A stretch of DNA of 32,000 nucleotides from Breznakia sp. PF5-3 (GTDB lineage: Bacteria > Bacillota_I > Bacilli_A > Erysipelotrichales > Erysipelotrichaceae), in assembly GCF_029504745.1 (NCBI RefSeq), contig NZ_JAQFIQ010000016.1, forward strand, positions 14,215-46,214, written 5' to 3'. Positions 9,493 to 21,630 of this stretch are shown piece by piece. Below the pieces are notes generated by a model that had not been told where the DNA came from, did no database searches, and saw only the letters and a list, made by a program, of their open reading frames with translations. Each line of letters starts with the position of its first letter. Positions within the stretch are counted from its first letter, which is position 1. Position numbers and translations under genes: made by a program.

Positions 9493-13837
<4,345 letters not shown>

Positions 13838-13839
13838 GA

Positions 13840-14439
13840 ATGTCAAAGACGATAAAAACAATCCTTGGTTTGTTCGTTGCGATAAATTTGACTGGATTAG
13901 GTGTAGCATTGTTTGTTGGAGTAAATCTGGGATCGGATACCATTACGGTTTTGGTAGATGGTATTCATCAAACCTTTGATATGAGTTATGGAGCTGCATC
14001 GAGAGTTTATAATATTATCATGTTGATGATTGCACTAGCAGTAGCACGTAAAAGTATTGGATGGACGACCGTTGTTTATGCATTAAGCGTAGGTTTTTCC
14101 ATGGATTTCTTTAACGAGGTGTTATCTATATTTGCAATGAATGACTTTTCATTAATTGCGAAAGTATTATGTATTATATTAGGTCAATTATGTTTTGGTA
14201 TGGCCTATGCATTGTTAATTATCTTTCGTAAAGGAATGAATCAAGCGGATGCGATATCCTATTATATTGCGGATAAAATACATACAAAATATGTTTATGT
14301 AAGAACTACCATGGATATCATGATGATTGTTGTCGGATATCTATTGGGAGGTATTGTAGGTATTGGTTCTATTATTGCAATGTGTACAACAGGGATATTT
14401 GTAAATATGTTTTTAAAAATTATGCATTATGAGCAGTAG
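13840..14439 (+). CDS. YczE/YyaS/YitT-like small polytopic membrane protein, copy 1
   Basis: 199 aa with about 5-6 TM segments. GLFVAINLTGLGVALFV..LGSDTITV is the N-terminal pattern I associate with the YczE/YitT group. It starts 2 nt after the GH1-3 stop with no clear SD, suggesting coupled translation. Confidence 0.55.
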   Translation: MSKTIKTILGLFVAINLTGLGVALFVGVNLGSDTITVLVDGIHQTFDMSYGAASRVYNIIMLMIALAVARKSIGWTTVVYALSVGFSMDFFNEVLSIFAMNDFSLIAKVLCIILGQLCFGMAYALLIIFRKGMNQADAISYYIADKIHTKYVYVRTTMDIMMIVVGYLLGGIVGIGSIIAMCTTGIFVNMFLKIMHYEQ

Positions 14440-14460
14440 TTAAGACTACTGCTTTTTATA
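14433..14460 (+). terminator. Intrinsic terminator between the two YczE-like genes
   Basis: Arms GCAGTAG (14433-14439, includes the stop codon) and CTACTGC (14446-14452) with loop TTAAGA, followed by TTTTTAT. Confidence 0.6.
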
Positions 14461-14471
14461 TGTTTTAAACA

Positions 14472-14480
14472 TGCTATAAT
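14472..14480 (+). promoter_or_regulatory. Extended -10 element (TGCTATAAT) for YczE-like copy 2
   Basis: Perfect TGnTATAAT 26 nt upstream of ATG 14506, followed by the SD AGGGGGAG. Confidence 0.5.
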
Positions 14481-14505
14481 AGCAATGTTGATTTAGGGGG
14501 AGTAT

Positions 14506-15105
14506 ATGAAAAATAAATTTATAAGAACAATACTTGGTTTATTTGTAGCCGTTAATTTAGCAGGTTTTGGTGCAGCTATCATGGTTCAAAGTGGTTTGGG
14601 TAGTGATCCGATTACCGTTTTTATTGATGGTTTACATCATACATTAGGAATCTCACTTGGCTGGGGGTCAAGAATGTATAGTGTTATAACATTGCTAATC
14701 GCTTTTATGATTGCTCGTAAAGATATAGGGTGGACGACAATTGTATTTACATTGAGTGTGGGCTTTACAATTGATTTCTATGATATTCTTTTGAAAAATT
14801 TTCCTATTGCAGATGTTGCATTTGGTTATCGTCTTCTATGCGTGTGTTTAGGCCAGGTGTGTTTGGGTGTTGCCTATGCGATACTGATTCTTTTCCGTAA
14901 TGGAATGAATCAATTGGAAGCGATATCCTATTATGTCAGTGATAAGCTAAATACTAAATTTGTTTATGTGAGAACAACTTTTGATGTCATCTTTTTAATA
15001 ATTGGAAAATTGCTTGGAGGTATAGTAGGTATAGGGTCTATCATTGCAATGTGTACAACCGGCTTTATTGTGAATATGATTTTAAAAATTATGCATTACG
15101 AATAA
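14506..15105 (+). CDS. YczE/YyaS/YitT-like small polytopic membrane protein, copy 2
   Basis: 199 aa, colinear with copy 1 over its full length. The last ~30 residues are almost identical (LLGGIVGIGSIIAMCTTG..VNM.LKIMHYE). Confidence 0.55.
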   Translation: MKNKFIRTILGLFVAVNLAGFGAAIMVQSGLGSDPITVFIDGLHHTLGISLGWGSRMYSVITLLIAFMIARKDIGWTTIVFTLSVGFTIDFYDILLKNFPIADVAFGYRLLCVCLGQVCLGVAYAILILFRNGMNQLEAISYYVSDKLNTKFVYVRTTFDVIFLIIGKLLGGIVGIGSIIAMCTTGFIVNMILKIMHYE

Positions 15106-15142
15106 AAATAACAATAATTGAATATATTGTTATTTTTATTTT
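15105..15142 (+). terminator. Intrinsic terminator ending the PTS/GH1/YczE locus
   Basis: Perfect 12-bp AT-rich arms AAAATAACAATA (15105-15116) and TATTGTTATTTT (15125-15136), followed by TATTTT. Confidence 0.55.
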
Positions 15143-15249
15143 ATAAAAGAGGGTTCTCTTTATTGGTATTTCTAATAAGAAAGAAGTTGGGTAAAAGAAG
15201 AGGAATGTTTAAATTTATTACTTTATAAAATGTTGTATAATATAATCAT

Positions 15250-16755
15250 ATGAAATTAGTAAATGCAAAACAAATGCGTCAAATTGATGAAGCTGCAATT
15301 CATAAATATCAAATACCAAGTTTAGAATTGATGGAAAATGCTGGACAGCAAGTGTACGAATCCATTATTCAACTTGTGAGTAAGAAGGACTTCATAGGTA
15401 TTGTTTGTGGAATTGGAAACAATGCTGGTGATGGTTTTGTTGTCGCTAGAAAACTATATGATGATGGATATAATGTTGAGATATTATCTATTGGTGAAGA
15501 AGCGAATATGAGTTTAGATTGTAAAGTGAATTACAACAAATGTACTACCTTAAGAATACCTTTTGTAGATTGTATGCAATCATGGGATGTTGTAATAGAT
15601 GCTATTTTTGGTACAGGTCTATCAAGAAATGTAGAAGGAGCGTATGCTTCGATTATTGAAAAGATAAATGCTTTATCAACAAAGGTGATAAGTATTGATA
15701 TCGCTAGTGGTATTGATGCCGCTACTGGTCACATATTAGGGAGTGTTATAAAAGCAGATTATACATTGACTTTACAAACCGGAAAAATTGGATTGTATAT
15801 GTATCCTGGAAGAATATATAGTGGACATGTAGAAGTATTGGATATTGGGATTCCACAACAGTTAATTGATGAAATGGATAGTACAATATATTTAATTGAG
15901 AAAAAAGATATGAAGTCATTACTACCAAGCCGTAGCATTCATTCTAATAAAGGCACCTATGGGAAAGTATTGTGTGTAGGCGGAAGTATGGAGATGAGTG
16001 GTGCTATTTCTTTGGCAGCACTTGCTGCGCTTCGCAGTGGTTGTGGAATGATTACTTGTGCAGTTCCAAAATGTATAAAAGATGTTGTTGCATGCAATGT
16101 GTTAGAAAGCATGAGAATTATTTTAAGTGATATAAATGGCCATATAGATAAACAAGCAGTAATAGAATTAAAGCCTAGACTATCTGCTTACAGTTGTTTG
16201 TTGATAGGTTGTGGTATAGGAAGAAGTAAAGATATAGAAGCAGTTTTAGAAGTACTACTAGATAGTGAACTTCCTTTAGTAATAGATGCAGATGGAATTT
16301 TCGCATTGAAATCTTTATTACCTAAATATAAAGAACGAAAAAATATAATTATTACACCACATCTGATGGAGTTTGCTAGACTTGTAGATAAGGATATACA
16401 AGAAATTATTGATAATCCAATTCAAGAGGCACTTGCCTTCACTGAAAGATATCCCTATATTACACTTGTTCTAAAGAGTGAAACATCTTTAGTTGTTCAA
16501 AATAGAAAAGTTTATGTAAATACTTATGGAAACAATGGACTAGCAAAAGGTGGTAGTGGAGATGTGTTAGCAGGAATAATTACAGGTCTTTATGCACAGA
16601 ATAAGGATGCGTTAGCAGCGGCTACTCTAGGTGTTTTCCTACATGCGTATAGTGCGGATGTTTTACTGAATGAAAAAACCCTCTATAGTATGATTCCAAG
16701 TGATATATTTATGCAAATTGATGATATAATAAAATCATTAGAGGAAGATTTATGA
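15250..16755 (+). CDS. nnr: Bifunctional NAD(P)H-hydrate repair enzyme Nnr (epimerase + ADP-dependent dehydratase)
   Basis: 501 aa. N-terminal YjeF_N pattern (MRQIDEAAI..IPSLELMENAG..CGIGNNAGDGFV) and C-terminal carbohydrate-kinase-like dehydratase (HSNKGTYGKVLCVGGS...GGSGDVLAGII). Confidence 0.9.
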   Translation: MKLVNAKQMRQIDEAAIHKYQIPSLELMENAGQQVYESIIQLVSKKDFIGIVCGIGNNAGDGFVVARKLYDDGYNVEILSIGEEANMSLDCKVNYNKCTTLRIPFVDCMQSWDVVIDAIFGTGLSRNVEGAYASIIEKINALSTKVISIDIASGIDAATGHILGSVIKADYTLTLQTGKIGLYMYPGRIYSGHVEVLDIGIPQQLIDEMDSTIYLIEKKDMKSLLPSRSIHSNKGTYGKVLCVGGSMEMSGAISLAALAALRSGCGMITCAVPKCIKDVVACNVLESMRIILSDINGHIDKQAVIELKPRLSAYSCLLIGCGIGRSKDIEAVLEVLLDSELPLVIDADGIFALKSLLPKYKERKNIIITPHLMEFARLVDKDIQEIIDNPIQEALAFTERYPYITLVLKSETSLVVQNRKVYVNTYGNNGLAKGGSGDVLAGIITGLYAQNKDALAAATLGVFLHAYSADVLLNEKTLYSMIPSDIFMQIDDIIKSLEEDL

Positions 16756-17654
16756 TTCATATTATTGCAATGGTACCATATCTAGATAAAATTGAACGAG
16801 GTAAGGTTGATGAAAATCAACATTTTCATTTGCAATATACAACTTATCGTTTATCTAATGATGGATTACAAGTAGGACGTTATTTAAATACTCTAGGTGT
16901 TGATTATCAAGCATATGGTATAGTTGGAAAACAAGCATTAAAGTTTAAAGAGGATGATATGCATGCAATACAGATGGATGTTGAAAATGGAATGCGGATA
17001 TCATTTTACCAAGATGAAGAGTTGTGGCAACGTTTATATGATCCTCAACCTAGTTTAAGTGAAGATCAGTTAATGTTATATAAAACAATTGTAGGAAGTA
17101 GTATTCATCAAGGGGATTTACTAGTGTTTGCAGATATGTTAGATACGTTATCTTTTGCTCAAGCAAAAGCCCTATATTGTGATTTACGAAATAAAGCAAA
17201 GCTTTCTATATGGGCATTACCACCGATGTATTTATCAATGTTGAAAGATGCACCTTGTAATGTACTTGTTCAAGATCTTCAAAGTTTAAAGAAACATTTT
17301 AAGATTCAAAAAGAATTAAACCTTGTGGAAACGATACATCTTGTGAAACAAGAATTGTTATCGTTATCGAAAATTGTAATCTTAGGTGTTCGTAGTAATA
17401 AAATTTTAATTTTTGTTGGTGAAGATATATATAGCGCAGATTACAAAGTAGATGATCCAAAAGATAATGTTTATTATGCAGCAATGATAAGTGGGGTACT
17501 ATATTGTCATATCCAAAATGGTGACATAAAATGTTTGCTTGAAGAAGTACTTAGCTTAAGTGTTGGAGCAAGCTTATCTGGTGATTTGTATATACCTGAA
17601 AAGGAAGTTATAGCTAAGATTAAAGAAAAGATGGTGATTTCAAAATTGGTATAG
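16752..17654 (+). CDS. PfkB/ribokinase-fold-like protein with degenerate catalytic motifs
   Basis: 300 aa. The N-terminus aligns by eye with 1-phosphofructokinase-type PfkB proteins (MIHIIAMVPYLDKI...LNTLGVDYQAYGIVGK), but the GG dipeptide position reads ND. The C-terminal GAGD anion-hole/catalytic motif position reads YYAAM. ATGA overlap with nnr. Confidence 0.45.
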   Translation: MIHIIAMVPYLDKIERGKVDENQHFHLQYTTYRLSNDGLQVGRYLNTLGVDYQAYGIVGKQALKFKEDDMHAIQMDVENGMRISFYQDEELWQRLYDPQPSLSEDQLMLYKTIVGSSIHQGDLLVFADMLDTLSFAQAKALYCDLRNKAKLSIWALPPMYLSMLKDAPCNVLVQDLQSLKKHFKIQKELNLVETIHLVKQELLSLSKIVILGVRSNKILIFVGEDIYSADYKVDDPKDNVYYAAMISGVLYCHIQNGDIKCLLEEVLSLSVGASLSGDLYIPEKEVIAKIKEKMVISKLV

Positions 17655-17705
17655 AGGGAGAATGTGATACGTAATAAAATAGTATGCATAAGGAGGGGCT
17701 TTTAA

Positions 17706-18050
17706 ATGACGAATCAACGAATTGAACATTCTATGAAAATTTTATTGTTGGCAGGAGATGCTAGAGCAAAGTGCATGGAAGCACTAAGTGCAATTTCAAA
17801 TCAAGAAATTGATTACGCAAAAAAACTATTAAATGAGGCACAGGAAATTATAACAAATGCTCATAAAGTACAAACAGAAATTATACAAGAAGAAATATGT
17901 AAAGAATACAATGAGTATTCACTTTTATTTTCGCACGCACAAGATACATTGATGACAATTTGTAGTGAGATTAATATTGCGAAACAATTGATAAAGATAT
18001 TCACACAATATAATCAACGCTTGTGTGAGTTAGAAAAAGTACATATATAA
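17706..18050 (+). CDS. Orphan PTS lactose/cellobiose-family EIIA paralogue
   Basis: 114 aa, colinear with the EIIA at 9099..9437 (AGDARAKC, NAHKVQTEIIQEE, LLFSHAQDTLMTICSEINIAKQLIKIF). No EIIB or EIIC is adjacent. SD AAGGAGGGG. Confidence 0.85.
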   Translation: MTNQRIEHSMKILLLAGDARAKCMEALSAISNQEIDYAKKLLNEAQEIITNAHKVQTEIIQEEICKEYNEYSLLFSHAQDTLMTICSEINIAKQLIKIFTQYNQRLCELEKVHI

Positions 18051-18055
18051 AAAAT

Positions 18056-18082
18056 CAAACAAGATAATTGTTTGTTTTTTTT
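18056..18082 (+). terminator. Intrinsic terminator after the nnr / pfkB-like / EIIA operon
   Basis: Arms CAAACAA (18056-18062) and TTGTTTG (18068-18074) with loop GATAA, followed by T8. Confidence 0.65.
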
Positions 18083-18220
18083 ATTACCATGTCTATAAAA
18101 TTATAATATATCATCTTAATAATGATTAAAACACTAACAGCATTTCGCTTTAAGAGAGAATTTGTGTTTCATTCATCATGATAATGTGATAAAATATAAA
18201 TAAAATTAGGAGGGGGGAGC

Positions 18221-18643
18221 ATGGAAGAACAATTTAGAAGACAACTGTTTTTACTTGAAAACCAATTGGATGATACATATAGATTATTGAGAAGTAGCCA
18301 ACAAAAGATTGAAGATATAGAACAATTTATGATGTATTATCAAAGCAAAAGGGTTCATATTCTGCAAGGAATAGATCAAAAGCGAATAAAGCTTTCAAAT
18401 TACTATGATATATTTGAAAATGGAATAGCAACAAGAAACTATTCTGCATATATGCAGAATTTTTTGTGTGGTCAAAAAGGAGCTATAATCAACTTGGAAA
18501 GTGATAAAGCAGAAGATGAAATGAGACGAAAAAAAGCCCAATTACAAAATCAATTCTTGGATATAGAATGCAATATAAGATCATTGAATAACCAGTATGA
18601 AACAGTACAATGGGATTTAAGAAGGTATTTATCCGATAAATAA
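18221..18643 (+). CDS. Small coiled-coil protein, YwqH/DUF5082-like (T7SS toxin partner-like), first gene of the hydrolase operon
   Basis: 140 aa, heptad-rich and Pro-free, with two long helical stretches split by a central Gly-containing segment (ENGIATRNY...CGQKGA). Very strong SD AGGAGGGGGG. The layout resembles small helical partners encoded with LXG/T7SSb toxins. The family assignment is from memory only. Confidence 0.45.
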   Translation: MEEQFRRQLFLLENQLDDTYRLLRSSQQKIEDIEQFMMYYQSKRVHILQGIDQKRIKLSNYYDIFENGIATRNYSAYMQNFLCGQKGAIINLESDKAEDEMRRKKAQLQNQFLDIECNIRSLNNQYETVQWDLRRYLSDK

Positions 18644-18684
18644 AAGGATAAAAGATATTTAGTAAAGAGATAGGAGAAATAAGG

Positions 18685-19017
18685 ATGGATGAATTAAAAA
18701 TAAAAGATAATGATTTTAATCAAGTAGAAGATTATATAAATCAATTTATGAATGAACTAAAGGAGATATCGAAGCTGTATTTTGATAACATACATGTTAT
18801 TTATGAGTATGGATTACAAGATAGCGCTATGCAAGAAGTTATTTATGATAAGATTTACGCTCTTGTATATTTCACTTCAAGAGAGATTCAATCGGAAGTG
18901 GGGATGGAGAAAGATTATCATCCATTGCAAAAAGCAGTAAATGAATATAGTTTTACGCATAATGAATTGAATGCGTTTGTTTCAGAAATTGATGAAATTG
19001 ATTCAATATTATATTAG
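18685..19017 (+). CDS. Small helical protein (helix-turn-helix hairpin size), candidate T7SS targeting partner
   Basis: 110 aa, acidic, no signal peptide, with a central turn around EYGLQDSAMQ. SD TAGGAGAAA. Confidence 0.4.
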   Translation: MDELKIKDNDFNQVEDYINQFMNELKEISKLYFDNIHVIYEYGLQDSAMQEVIYDKIYALVYFTSREIQSEVGMEKDYHPLQKAVNEYSFTHNELNAFVSEIDEIDSILY

Positions 19018-19028
19018 GGAGAAAGAAT

Positions 19029-19322
19029 ATGGGAAAGACATTAATAATAAAACCAATCATATGTATGGACGCTTTACTTAAAATGAGAAAAGCAGCGGAA
19101 CAGATATTAAAAATGTATGAACATGATCTTGATGATTTATTAGCAAATAGTACAGGGAAATCAGTTGAGGAATTGAAAGTGATGGTTATGGAAATGCATG
19201 GATTGAAAACAGAACTGTATGATTTAATGAAAGAATTATCAGATGAAATTGATAGTTATTTGAAAGAACATATTGAGTTAGATGAAAAAACAGCATTGAA
19301 AATAAGAACCCAAAGGGAGTGA
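19029..19322 (+). CDS. Small helical protein of WXG100-like size, candidate T7SS targeting partner
   Basis: 97 aa with two predicted helices around a central NSTGKSVEEL turn and no signal peptide. Begins 11 nt after the previous gene; SD GGGAGAAAG. Confidence 0.4.
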   Translation: MGKTLIIKPIICMDALLKMRKAAEQILKMYEHDLDDLLANSTGKSVEELKVMVMEMHGLKTELYDLMKELSDEIDSYLKEHIELDEKTALKIRTQRE

Positions 19323-19324
19323 AT

Positions 19325-20086
19325 ATGAAAAAGCGGATAGTAATAGTCATATTAAATGTTTTCATTCTTAGTGGATGTAGATATATGAATGAAGATAGAA
19401 GCTTTACCAAAGAAGAAATAGAAGAGTCAATTTTGACGTATATGGAAGATAAATATGGAGAAAAGTTTACGATAGAAAATATTGGGTATAGTGCACCATT
19501 GGGGAATGCTGTAGAAGCATTTGTTATTTCAGAGGAAGATGAGCGAAAAAATGAAATACAAGTGAATTGGCGATATGAAGATGGGAAAGAATTAATAGAT
19601 GATAATTATACACATCTACTTTATAAAAAAGAAGCAAATGAGTTGATGGATCCATTAATTGAAGATGGGTTTAAAGAGTTTGAGTACGCAGCGTATAGTA
19701 GAATCAGTGATGATGTTCCGATTGAAAAATATGATAAGAATATATCTTTTAAAAAGATAGCGAAAACTAAGAAGGTTGGTATAGAAGTTGTTATTTTACT
19801 AAATGAGAATACAGTGGGTGAAGAAGAGAAAATTAAAGAAAAGATTCTTCAATTATATGAAGATACAAAGGATAAGACTACAGATGAAGTGCATTTTAAT
19901 ATAACTGTTTATGTTTGTGGGAATAATAATTTTTATGAGAATCAACCACTTATGCAACAGTTTAAAGAATTATATTCTTTGGATATAGGTGAAATTCCTT
20001 TCACTTTTTATGGGGCTGAGAAAGATGTAATTATTGAGTTTTTATTTAGTTCTAACGATATAGAGGAAGGGGTAGAGGAATTATGA
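19325..20086 (+). CDS. Lipoprotein, candidate immunity protein for the downstream hydrolase
   Basis: MKKRIVIVILNVFILSGC is a signal peptide with the lipobox L-S-G-C. The mature part is acidic and soluble. I prefer ATG 19325 (5 nt after GGGAG) over the track's GTG at 19319. Its stop overlaps the hydrolase start (ATGA at 20083-20086). Confidence 0.6.
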   Translation: MKKRIVIVILNVFILSGCRYMNEDRSFTKEEIEESILTYMEDKYGEKFTIENIGYSAPLGNAVEAFVISEEDERKNEIQVNWRYEDGKELIDDNYTHLLYKKEANELMDPLIEDGFKEFEYAAYSRISDDVPIEKYDKNISFKKIAKTKKVGIEVVILLNENTVGEEEKIKEKILQLYEDTKDKTTDEVHFNITVYVCGNNNFYENQPLMQQFKELYSLDIGEIPFTFYGAEKDVIIEFLFSSNDIEEGVEEL

Positions 20087-21630
20087 GTATTGAAGAAGTA
20101 CTATTGATATTGAATGCTTTGGTTTATTCAAATGGAGTCAATGAAAAAAGCATGGAAAAAAATGTATATGATTTAGTTGAAGATGGATTATTAAAACCAG
20201 ACGATGCAATTGCAACTAAAGAAGAATGGAATGCTTTGATTCGTACGATAAAACAAAATGAAACTTATTTCTCTAAAGTTAAATTGGTAGATATTGAAAG
20301 TAAAAAAGAAGCACAGAAGAATGTTACGTTTATAAATGAAAATGTTAATGCAGATAGAAAACAAGAAGTATATGTAGTTTTCAAAGGAACAGGATCATTA
20401 GAATGGCATGATAATGCGAAAGGTGCTTTGTTGATGGTACCACTTACTCCACAACAACAAAATGCTTTGAATTATGCAAATAGAATAGCTAAAGATTATA
20501 GTCAATATGATTTTATAGTCAGTGGTCATTCTAAGGGTGGAAATAAAGCACAAGTGGTTACACTTTTATGTGATAAAGTAAAAGCAGGATATTCTTTTGA
20601 TGGACAAGGAATGGGAAAAGGGTTCATGATTAAATATCGATTACAAATAGAACAAAACCAACATAAACTTGTTTCTATTTCAAATCGAAGTGATTTTGTG
20701 AATTCATTATTTAAGTCAGTAGCAGGAAAGGTGAAGTTTACGAATAATACTGGAAACTTGTTGGATTGGCTTATGAGTGGGGATAAGGATATAGCGATGC
20801 ATCAACATTCTCCATTGGCAATGTTTGAGATAAAGGATGGATATTTGCGAATGTTTGATACAAAAGGGATAAAGCAGGATTCAACTTCTTTATTTTTAGG
20901 GAATATGGTGGATTATTTTCGTGAGCATATGAGTGAAGATGATTTTGAAACGTTTGCAAATCTAGTGATGCATATGTTTGAGACTGGAGGATGTGGAGAT
21001 AAGCATTTTGATATTAAAAACATAGATCCAGAGTTTTGGGTACGATTAATAAATCATATATTGAAGTATGGAGAAGAATTAGGGATGAAGGAAAACGATA
21101 TGCTATTATTGTTGAGTAATCTATCAATCTTTATACCAGATGATAGTGTATGGGGTTATGTATTAGAAGCAATTAAGTTATTCAGAAATCCAGGAGGGAT
21201 TTTAGCAGATGCGATTATTGCAGATGAAACACCAAGACGGTTGAATGAAATAATGGTTGAGTATAATAGCAAATATAGTGAAGTGATGAAAAAGAAAGAA
21301 ATAATTCGAGATTTTAGTAGTGAAGCACAGGAAGCGATGCGAGATAGTTTGGCATGTGAAATAGATCGTTCGCAATTATCAATGGAATCAACACCAGGGT
21401 GGGGATATGTAGCAGAAATCTTATCGGATACAGGAGTGTTGGAAAGTCATCACAAAGTAGAGGAGTTATGCAATGAGTTATTGGACACATGTGAGGTAAC
21501 AGAAGCAAAGTATAATAAAATTATAGAAGAAGTATATGCGAAGGATCATGAGTTTGCACAGAGATTGAAGAAGAAAACAGATAGGATAAGAGATTATCGA
21601 GCAGTTATAAGAAAAGCGAGAAATAAATAA
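20083..21630 (+). CDS. Alpha/beta-hydrolase (lipase-like, DUF2974/Mbeg1-like GHSKGG type) with long C-terminal helical domain; candidate reverse-architecture T7SS lipase toxin
   Basis: 515 aa with no signal peptide or TM segment. N-terminal half: VVFKGTGSLEWHDN ... QQQNALNYA ... FIVSGHSKGGNKAQ (nucleophile elbow G-H-S-K-G, Ser150, codon 20530-20532) ... YSFDGQG. Residues ~270-515 are helix-rich and charged. Confidence 0.55.
   Translation: MSIEEVLLILNALVYSNGVNEKSMEKNVYDLVEDGLLKPDDAIATKEEWNALIRTIKQNETYFSKVKLVDIESKKEAQKNVTFINENVNADRKQEVYVVFKGTGSLEWHDNAKGALLMVPLTPQQQNALNYANRIAKDYSQYDFIVSGHSKGGNKAQVVTLLCDKVKAGYSFDGQGMGKGFMIKYRLQIEQNQHKLVSISNRSDFVNSLFKSVAGKVKFTNNTGNLLDWLMSGDKDIAMHQHSPLAMFEIKDGYLRMFDTKGIKQDSTSLFLGNMVDYFREHMSEDDFETFANLVMHMFETGGCGDKHFDIKNIDPEFWVRLINHILKYGEELGMKENDMLLLLSNLSIFIPDDSVWGYVLEAIKLFRNPGGILADAIIADETPRRLNEIMVEYNSKYSEVMKKKEIIRDFSSEAQEAMRDSLACEIDRSQLSMESTPGWGYVAEILSDTGVLESHHKVEELCNELLDTCEVTEAKYNKIIEEVYAKDHEFAQRLKKKTDRIRDYRAVIRKARNK

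Follow-up and report, generated by a model that had tools for sequence, protein, structure and literature searches.

Type VIIb secretion system (T7SSb) toxins that carry the enzyme in front of the export domain have been described in Staphylococcus aureus: the phospholipase TslA of the Tsl1 system, which is accompanied by the partners TlaA1 and TlaA2 and by the lipoprotein TilA (PMC10730906), and TslM of the Tsl2 system, a reverse T7SSb phospholipase that comes with TlaM and TilM (PMC13560087). 'Reverse' lipases have also been reported at the T7SSe locus of Neobacillus and at the T7SSg locus of Paenibacillus aquistagni (PMC11217815). The LXG toxins, such as Streptococcus intermedius TelA, are served by the targeting factors Lap3 (the DUF5344 family) and Lap4 (DUF5082) (PMC10801868). 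Experiments have demonstrated the export of complexes between LXG toxins and Lap proteins, and between TslA and TlaA1/TlaA2. Here we describe a five-gene operon in a stretch of 32,000 nucleotides (the window) of contig NZ_JAQFIQ010000016.1 of Breznakia sp. PF5-3, an insect-gut bacterium of the family Erysipelotrichaceae. The operon encodes three small proteins (p1, p2 and p3), a lipoprotein and a 515-residue hydrolase. From its gene content, its homologies and its genomic associations, it is probably a toxin-immunity-chaperone cassette for a T7SSb, and most likely represents a third family of reverse-lipase T7SSb toxins, outside Tsl1 and Tsl2 (TslM being compared by its description). The parts of the cassette are as follows (aa, amino acids).

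18221..18643, + strand: p1, 140 aa; coiled-coil partner protein, proposed Lap4/YwqH-like targeting factor
18685..19017, + strand: p2, 110 aa; helical partner of an unannotated family, ending ...IDEIDSILY
19029..19322, + strand: p3, 97 aa; partner resembling the WXG100 superfamily and Lap3 (DUF5344)
19325..20086, + strand: lipoprotein, 253 aa counted from the ATG, with an LSGC lipobox; proposed extracellular immunity protein
20083..21630, + strand: hydrolase and toxin candidate, 515 aa
20083..21177, + strand: toxin residues 1-365, Mbeg1-like/DUF2974 alpha/beta-hydrolase domain (from PF11187, the AlphaFold2 model and Foldseek)
21298..21630, + strand: toxin residues 406-515 and the stop codon, modular helical C-terminal domain, starting at an RDFS motif

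Comparison with described systems

All five open reading frames (ORFs) are intact and co-directional. Their coordinates were reproduced as given in the first-pass annotation of this DNA, together with the spacing from p1 to the toxin gene: gaps of 41, 11 and 2 nt, and then an ATGA overlap between the lipoprotein stop and the toxin start. That annotation had likened the operon to the TslA module, and in its organisation the cassette does resemble Tsl1. Both toxins have an N-terminal lipase-type alpha/beta-hydrolase domain with a GxSxG elbow, a helical C-terminal domain and no signal peptide. In both systems small helical partners are encoded in the same operon, a lipoprotein gene (here proposed to confer immunity) lies directly upstream of the toxin gene, and cassettes occur at T7SS loci as well as elsewhere; moreover, Yarrowia Lip2 (3o0d), the lipase template of the TslA authors, is a Foldseek match of the window toxin. 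By sequence, however, the cassette is not a member of Tsl1, and the differences in detail that had been claimed for it were borne out. The TslA allele used for comparison (WP_000750587.1, from the source data of the paper) has no match to PF11187; BLASTP aligned it with the window toxin over 28 residues at the elbow only (E = 0.12), and hhalign gave a probability of 26% over the core, the C-terminal domains being unrelated. Three partner genes lie upstream here, as against two downstream for TslA, and the window lipoprotein is not of the DUF576 family. The targeting domain of TslA has been described as a mirrored LXG domain with a GxL motif, whereas the domain found here runs in the same direction as its N-terminal counterparts.

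Tsl2 shares with the present family its paralogous, polymorphic and island-borne character. The description of the TslM system sets the cassette apart: TslM has a single WXG100 partner and a long disordered linker where the window has three partners, and its membrane-anchored DUF1433 immunity protein is encoded divergently, in contrast to the co-directional, coupled lipoprotein without DUF1433 seen here. The reverse architecture is less unusual than the first-pass annotation implied, since Tsl2/TslM has been published and reverse lipases have been noted at other T7SS loci. The likeness to the LXG/Lap systems concerns the small alpha-helical partners encoded upstream of the toxin, the matches of the p3 family to DUF5344 and of the p1 family to PF16888 (all below threshold), an FxxxD-type motif in many p3 proteins, and a third small gene between the pair, as at telA/telB (PMC10765036). 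In addition, proteins carrying the window domain at their N-terminus show the canonical order of Lap genes, toxin gene and immunity genes. On the other hand, the proposed targeting domain of the window toxin is not the Pfam LXG domain (PF04740); it is about 110 rather than about 200 aa long and is located at the C-terminus, and the proposed immunity gene follows the partner genes and precedes the toxin gene.

Linkage of related cassettes to type VII secretion genes

A scan with the hydrolase profile, keeping one genome per species, gave 80 species-level loci (numbered with the prefix L), and accompanying genes were identified with hidden Markov models (HMMs) built from the first modules found. 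In 42 of the 80 loci the gene immediately ahead of the hydrolase belongs to the lipoprotein family; p2 is present in 26, p3 in 22 and p1 in 12, and the relatives keep the order p1-p2-p3-lipoprotein-hydrolase. EssC, counted when at least 1200 aa long and within 10 kb, accompanies the hydrolase at 16 of the 80 loci, and either EssC or a WXG100 protein occurs within 10 kb at 25. For a random gene, such proximity to essC would by our estimate be met in under about 1% of genomes. One metagenome contig (L007) reads YukC/EssB, EssC, a 772-aa EsaA-like protein, p1, p2, p3, lipoprotein and hydrolase; cassettes also adjoin essB, essC or esaA-like genes in L013, L018, L028, L031 and others. In Enterococcus sp. 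BWT-B8, Candidatus Enterococcus clewellii and one metagenome contig (L003, L004 and L005) a WXG100 gene heads the series p1-p2-p3-lipoprotein-hydrolase, and in the L005 metagenome contig DUF4176 follows downstream. The EssC linkage in 16 of the 80 loci, combined with the gene-by-gene adjacency in L007, L013, L018, L028 and L031, is far above chance. Linkage to ess genes or WXG100 was thus found at the level of the family and not within the 32-kb window. At that level, the first-pass proposal of a reverse lipase-toxin module of a T7SSb gains support from the T7SS-linked cassettes, the conservation of the lipoprotein, the likeness of p1 and p3 to known factors, and the modular domain described below.

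The family ranges over Erysipelotrichales, Enterococcus, Clostridia, Lachnospiraceae and some Actinomycetota. Where the lipoprotein is missing (38 loci), the hydrolase is mostly shorter, at about 375-470 aa (e.g., in Parvimonas), and a T7SS marker lies near just five of these loci. The Parvimonas proteins (L019, L020, L026, L044 and L076) are short Mbeg1-like proteins, mostly of about 375-383 aa (the L044 ORF has 469 aa); this large group is very abundant in metagenomes, has no partner, lipoprotein or T7SS genes nearby, and includes several members with a DUF6792 match. The actinomycetotal relatives are L025 (a Propionibacteriaceae metagenome-assembled genome, MAG), L066 (Olsenella), L087 (an Atopobiaceae MAG) and L057 (a Coriobacteriaceae MAG). 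L025 has p1, p2 and p3 and a lipoprotein-family match on an oversized 474-aa stop-to-stop ORF overlapping them, and L087 has EssC fragments, WXG100 and p2; these occurrences could reflect horizontal transfer or mis-binning.

Eleven loci of Paenibacillus (L023, L027, L029, L036, L038, L042, L047, L053, L063, L078 and L083) combine the same lipoprotein family with an Mbeg1-like hydrolase. The hydrolases are 611-835 aa long with a different C-terminal region that gives no match to the domain profile, and p1-p3 are absent. In L029, L038, L042 and L083, a shorter EssC (about 1300 aa) and WXG100 occur within 10 kb of the hydrolase, and these four may encode the same proteins as the reverse lipases reported in PMC11217815. 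The Paenibacillus loci suggest that T7SS subtypes have exchanged the trafficking part.

The modular C-terminal domain

A domain starting at RDFS, with the motifs RDF...WDxW...YYxKxID, makes up the last ~110 residues of the toxin. An HMM of the toxin C-termini also matches the first ~110 residues of two proteins that are not hydrolases. One of them, in L013 (12741-14255), has 504 aa, with a second p1-p2-p3 set ahead of it and five paralogous genes of ~220-246 aa behind it; the other, in L031 (11680-12807), has 375 aa and is preceded by p2 and a 94-aa ORF. The L013 segment (11713-17724), located downstream of a lipase cassette and made up of the p1-p2-p3 set, the 504-aa carrier and the five tandem paralogs, looks like a canonical toxin with an immunity array of an undescribed family.

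When a profile built from 11 toxin C-terminal domains was searched against 1.84 billion representative proteins, 597 representative clusters were matched at E-values up to 1e-3. The position of the domain was counted in the best 150 of the 597 clusters, of which 118 proteins have at least 250 aa, with the following outcome.

C-terminus: 69 of 118 proteins, 59 with GHSxGG
Extreme N-terminus: 41 of 118 proteins, none with GHSxGG
Internal: 8 of 118 proteins, all 8 with GHSxGG

The domain has the same sequence direction at N- and C-terminal positions, i.e., it is not mirrored. This is a point that the first-pass annotation did not contain: one modular domain occurs at the C-terminus of hydrolases and at the N-terminus of 41 non-hydrolase proteins. 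The C-terminal regions of these 41 carriers fall into 16 mutually unrelated clusters, and none of the 16 carriers scanned had a Pfam family in this region. Sixteen unrelated clusters behind one domain is what a conserved trafficking domain attached to polymorphic toxin domains would look like, and we propose from these comparisons that the C-terminal domain of the window toxin is a T7SS targeting domain. The internal carriers (P0277, P0278, P0282, P0286, P0299, P0305, P0328 and P0371; 598-879 aa) have the order GHSxGG hydrolase motif, targeting domain, and a further 200-490 unannotated residues. All four of those scanned with Pfam were Mbeg1-like, and by their sequences the internal carriers may have two effector domains flanking one trafficking domain.

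The hydrolase

The toxin candidate scores 43.0 bits for Pfam family PF11187 (Mbeg1-like), above the Pfam cut-off of 21.1 bits (E = 4.8e-11; match over residues 62-188), and 'Mbeg1-like' is also the NCBI name for the identical protein. Ser150 (codon 20530-20532) in the GHSKGG elbow, Asp204 and His242 are invariant across 22 aligned homologs, as are the stretches GHSKGGNK at the elbow and SFDGQG. From the lipase-3 topology, we propose that Ser150, Asp204 and His242 form the catalytic triad. An AlphaFold2 model has pLDDT (predicted local distance difference test) values mostly of 80-96 over residues 1-365, and its C-terminal part is predicted to be helical. The top Foldseek matches of this model in the PDB were Rhizomucor lipase (6qpp), Yarrowia Lip2 (3o0d) and feruloyl esterase A, and rank 11 was 9cys, a lipase effector of the type VI secretion system (T6SS) in complex with its immunity protein. 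Besides lipases, the structural neighbours include feruloyl esterases, PETases and cutinases; the predicted fold is closest to class-3 lipases. The acidic N-terminus corresponds to the first conserved helix of the domain and has no signal peptide, and a Sec-exported enzyme was rejected on this ground. The first-pass description of a 515-aa GHSKGG hydrolase with a helix-rich C-terminal part thus stands.

The RefSeq entry 'Mbeg1-like protein [unclassified Breznakia]' is identical to the toxin, has 398 aa, and begins at Met118. This deposited gene model is probably too short, because the missing 117 residues (20083-20433) are kept in all homologs and the longer reading starts in the ATGA overlap with the lipoprotein stop.

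Proteins with the Mbeg1/DUF2974 domain belong to the same hydrolase family, and this is a recurring effector domain of interbacterial or host-directed secretion systems. It is reportedly mentioned in a paper on the T6SS secretome of Bacteroides. Type IV secretion systems that kill bacteria likewise have DUF2974 listed among their effector domains (PMC6536674). These other proteins differ from the window toxin in having other or undefined export routes, and none of them comes with the C-terminal domain, p1-p3 or the lipoprotein.

The partner proteins and the lipoprotein

The p3 family aligns with neighbouring WXG100 proteins over 98 columns (hhalign probability 93.6%, E = 2e-7), and five of ten members match DUF5344 over their full length at E-values of 5e-5 to 2e-3, below the Pfam cut-off. 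The motif [YF]xxx[DE] occurs in the last 30 aa of 17 of the 23 p3 proteins. For p1, which has an ortholog of 48% identity in Breznakia pachnodae, three of ten family members have sub-threshold matches (E = 6e-5 to 1e-3) to the YwqH-like family PF16888, nearly full-length in two cases, and the family appears weakly Lap4-like. Here we take PF16888 to be the former DUF5082, that is Lap4, from the adjacent numbering (PF16887 being DUF5081).

No Pfam family covers p2, and its profile found nothing specific in Pfam or the PDB; its relation to p3 is weak (hhalign probability 61%, E = 8e-5). The C-terminal consensus of the family is F[IL]xx[IV]DxxDxF[LI]Y, with Asp106 and Tyr110 invariant. All 28 members have DxxxY in the last 30 aa, at most 3 residues from the C-terminus in 24 of them, as against 0/23 p3 and 0/23 WXG100 proteins. 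In sequence, DxxxY is the reverse of the classical YxxxD/E motif.

The lipoprotein begins with MKKRIVIVILNVFILSGC, a signal peptide with an LSGC lipobox, and lies upstream of and coupled to the toxin gene, as had been noted. A hypothetical protein of Breznakia sp. PF5-3 (locus tag M2475_001086) matches it at 100% identity. It belongs to no Pfam or NCBIfam family, neither DUF576 nor DUF1433, and a sequence search returned only two near-identical Breznakia proteins. Of 52 family members, nearly all have a signal peptide followed by Cys, and two or more copies of the gene occur in L001, L013, L018, L029 and others. In B. pachnodae (L001, 8268-10004) the lipoprotein gene is duplicated, and the 42-aa ORF separating the copies shares 60% identity with residues 1-39 of the window toxin; by this similarity, the ORF is a toxin remnant next to an additional immunity gene, an outcome that recombination at toxin/immunity islands would be expected to give.

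Proposed mechanism and alternatives

In the mechanism that we propose, the 515-aa toxin, an N-terminal serine hydrolase with a ~110-residue helical C-terminal domain, would be made in the cytoplasm, where p1, p2 and p3 would bind the C-terminal domain to give a helical pre-secretion bundle. The EssC ATPase would recognise this bundle and export the complex. Once outside, the hydrolase would attack the envelopes of Gram-positive neighbours, most likely at acyl esters of membrane lipids, and the lipoprotein, tethered to the membrane's outer face, would protect the producer by binding and blocking the hydrolase domain. The same domain, in the same direction, would act at the N-terminus of other polymorphic proteins, as an export domain working from either end. 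Secretion, partner binding, lipase activity, toxicity and immunity are all inferred here from sequence comparison. More tentatively, the domain and p1-p2-p3 might constitute an unrecognised non-LXG targeting system of T7SS that exports from either end and has the DxxxY of p2 as part of its signal.

Several results weigh against a T7SSb cassette. None of p1, p2 and p3 of the window has a significant Pfam match, and the links to Lap3 and Lap4 come from sub-threshold matches of other members of the families. No LXG match was found in the toxin at E-values up to 1, nor in 16 N-terminal carriers scanned. Comparison of the domain by hhalign with WXG100, p1, p2, p3 and the C-terminus of TslA gave no similarity, its profile found generic coiled coils and no specific relative among PDB sequences, and the AlphaFold2 model of the domain alone (mainly one 62-residue helix, mean pLDDT 81) had no Foldseek match. 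As the first-pass annotation had stated of the secretion apparatus, HMMs for EssB, EssC, the EsaA-like protein and WXG100 detected nothing in the 32-kb window, and the WXG100 gene found upstream in the Enterococcus-type cassettes has no counterpart in the two Breznakia cassettes. To our knowledge, there is no biochemically defined member of the Mbeg1-like family and none with a defined substrate.

The domain without detectable LXG or WXG100 similarity, and the 55 of 80 loci that have neither EssC nor WXG100 within 10 kb, would suit a hydrolase complex, cytoplasmic or associated with the membrane, that has structural coiled-coil subunits as well as a lipoprotein and is unrelated to secretion, lying close to T7SS genes by chance. 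This reading is disfavoured, and seems very improbable, in view of EssC at 16 of the 80 loci, the adjacency in L007, L013, L018, L028 and L031, the WXG100- and Lap3-like character of p3, and a domain that heads 41 proteins with polymorphic C-terminal regions; besides, a cytoplasmic enzyme with an exported lipoprotein would be senseless unless the enzyme were exported too. It is unlikely, but less so, that the cassette is orphaned or decaying, i.e., that the strain has no working T7SS or export and that the operon persists mainly for the sake of a lipoprotein that protects against the toxins of neighbours. The window without T7SS genes and the Breznakia cassettes without WXG100 would agree with this, as would the toxin remnant of B. 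pachnodae, and loci of this kind commonly carry orphan immunity genes (PMC13560087). However, the five ORFs are intact and tightly coupled, with the catalytic residues conserved. The whole cassette is also kept in B. pachnodae, between other neighbours, at 45-56% protein identity, and this preservation in two Breznakia species points to purifying selection on every gene. Furthermore, a single contig of the congener B. blatticola encodes EssC, an EsaA-like protein of 737 aa and a WXG100 protein. The nearest relatives of the B. blatticola EssC (P0143 and P0144) come from other samples, the 90% clusters of its EsxA and EsaA-like protein have no other members, and we found no literature linking Breznakia with type VII secretion.

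A T7SS effector of the same architecture might also have a target other than bacterial membrane lipid, as an esterase of wall polymers (e.g., of O-acetyl or D-alanyl esters) or as an effector directed at the insect host. Mbeg1 of Gemella sanguinis, the founding member of PF11187, owes its isolation to a clone that induced NF-kB in human cells (PMC6867899), and both the feruloyl esterases, PETases and cutinases among the structural neighbours and the want of a defined substrate for any Mbeg1-like enzyme leave room for such a target. We regard it as quite unlikely. The best fold matches are triacylglycerol lipases, with an antibacterial T6SS lipase effector at rank 11, both of the characterised reverse T7SS toxins are phospholipases (PMC10730906, PMC13560087), and a conserved, translationally coupled extracellular lipoprotein, with its family upstream of the hydrolase in 42 of the 80 loci, speaks for an activity on the bacterial surface from which the producer protects itself.

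Operon signals and chromosomal neighbourhood

Three candidate signals precede the first gene.

18056..18082, + strand: terminator-like hairpin CAAACAA-GATAA-TTGTTTG followed by 8 T; closes the upstream PTS (phosphotransferase system) IIA gene; 5' limit of the operon
18178..18206, + strand: promoter-like site ATGATA, 17-nt spacer, TAAAAT; 9/12 matches
18208..18217, + strand: Shine-Dalgarno sequence AGGAGGGGGG of p1, 3 nt ahead of the ATG

The Shine-Dalgarno sequence of p1 is as the first-pass annotation gave it. The hairpin and T run of its 'strong terminator' are present as well; the strength was not upheld, the AT-rich stem having 7 bp with 2 G-C pairs and a folding energy of -7 kcal/mol (z = -2.0), and a consensus terminator scan did not pick it up. 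It is better described as a modest terminator, plausible for a genome of 30% GC. The promoter-like site is weak, such sites not being enriched in the region. Downstream of the toxin gene no terminator was found in the 75 nt that separate it from a DUF368-type gene. Within the operon, the only terminator-like site that the scan gave is a perfect 8-bp palindrome, ATTCTGCATATATGCAGAAT, followed by TTTTTT (18441-18460; -8.9 kcal/mol, z = -3.25) inside the p1 coding region, where it may represent either transcription attenuation or a coding coincidence.

On both sides the operon is bordered by housekeeping genes, as had been noted: an NAD(P)HX repair enzyme (nnr) and the PTS IIA component upstream, and a DUF368/VCA0040-like membrane protein and pyruvate:ferredoxin oxidoreductase downstream. 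A phage or plasmid element was rejected on account of these neighbours. The earlier idea of a small accessory insertion is favoured by the other neighbours of the cassette in B. pachnodae. A search for flanking repeats, which found none, and the GC content (28-33%, with flanks of 30-37%), slightly lower but with no clear anomaly, add nothing to it. The interval 13840-15105, upstream of the nnr gene, encodes a tandem pair of 199-aa DUF6198-family paralogs. Rfam gave no matches in the 32-kb window.

Conclusion

Only two families of T7SS toxins with a C-terminal export domain have been characterised, both in S. aureus, and the cassette described here most likely defines a third. The new family is much more widely distributed, and has its own family of putative immunity lipoproteins and three partners, one of them from an unannotated family. 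The finding also offers a likely role for many Gram-positive DUF2974/Mbeg1-like proteins, namely as secreted antibacterial esterases. If the domain does work from both ends, one unmirrored domain would export polymorphic toxins when N-terminal and Mbeg1-like lipases when C-terminal. Because the same proposed targeting domain is found naturally at either end, the question of how the secretion machinery reads a signal placed at one or the other end of a substrate could be tested with matched natural, rather than engineered, substrates.

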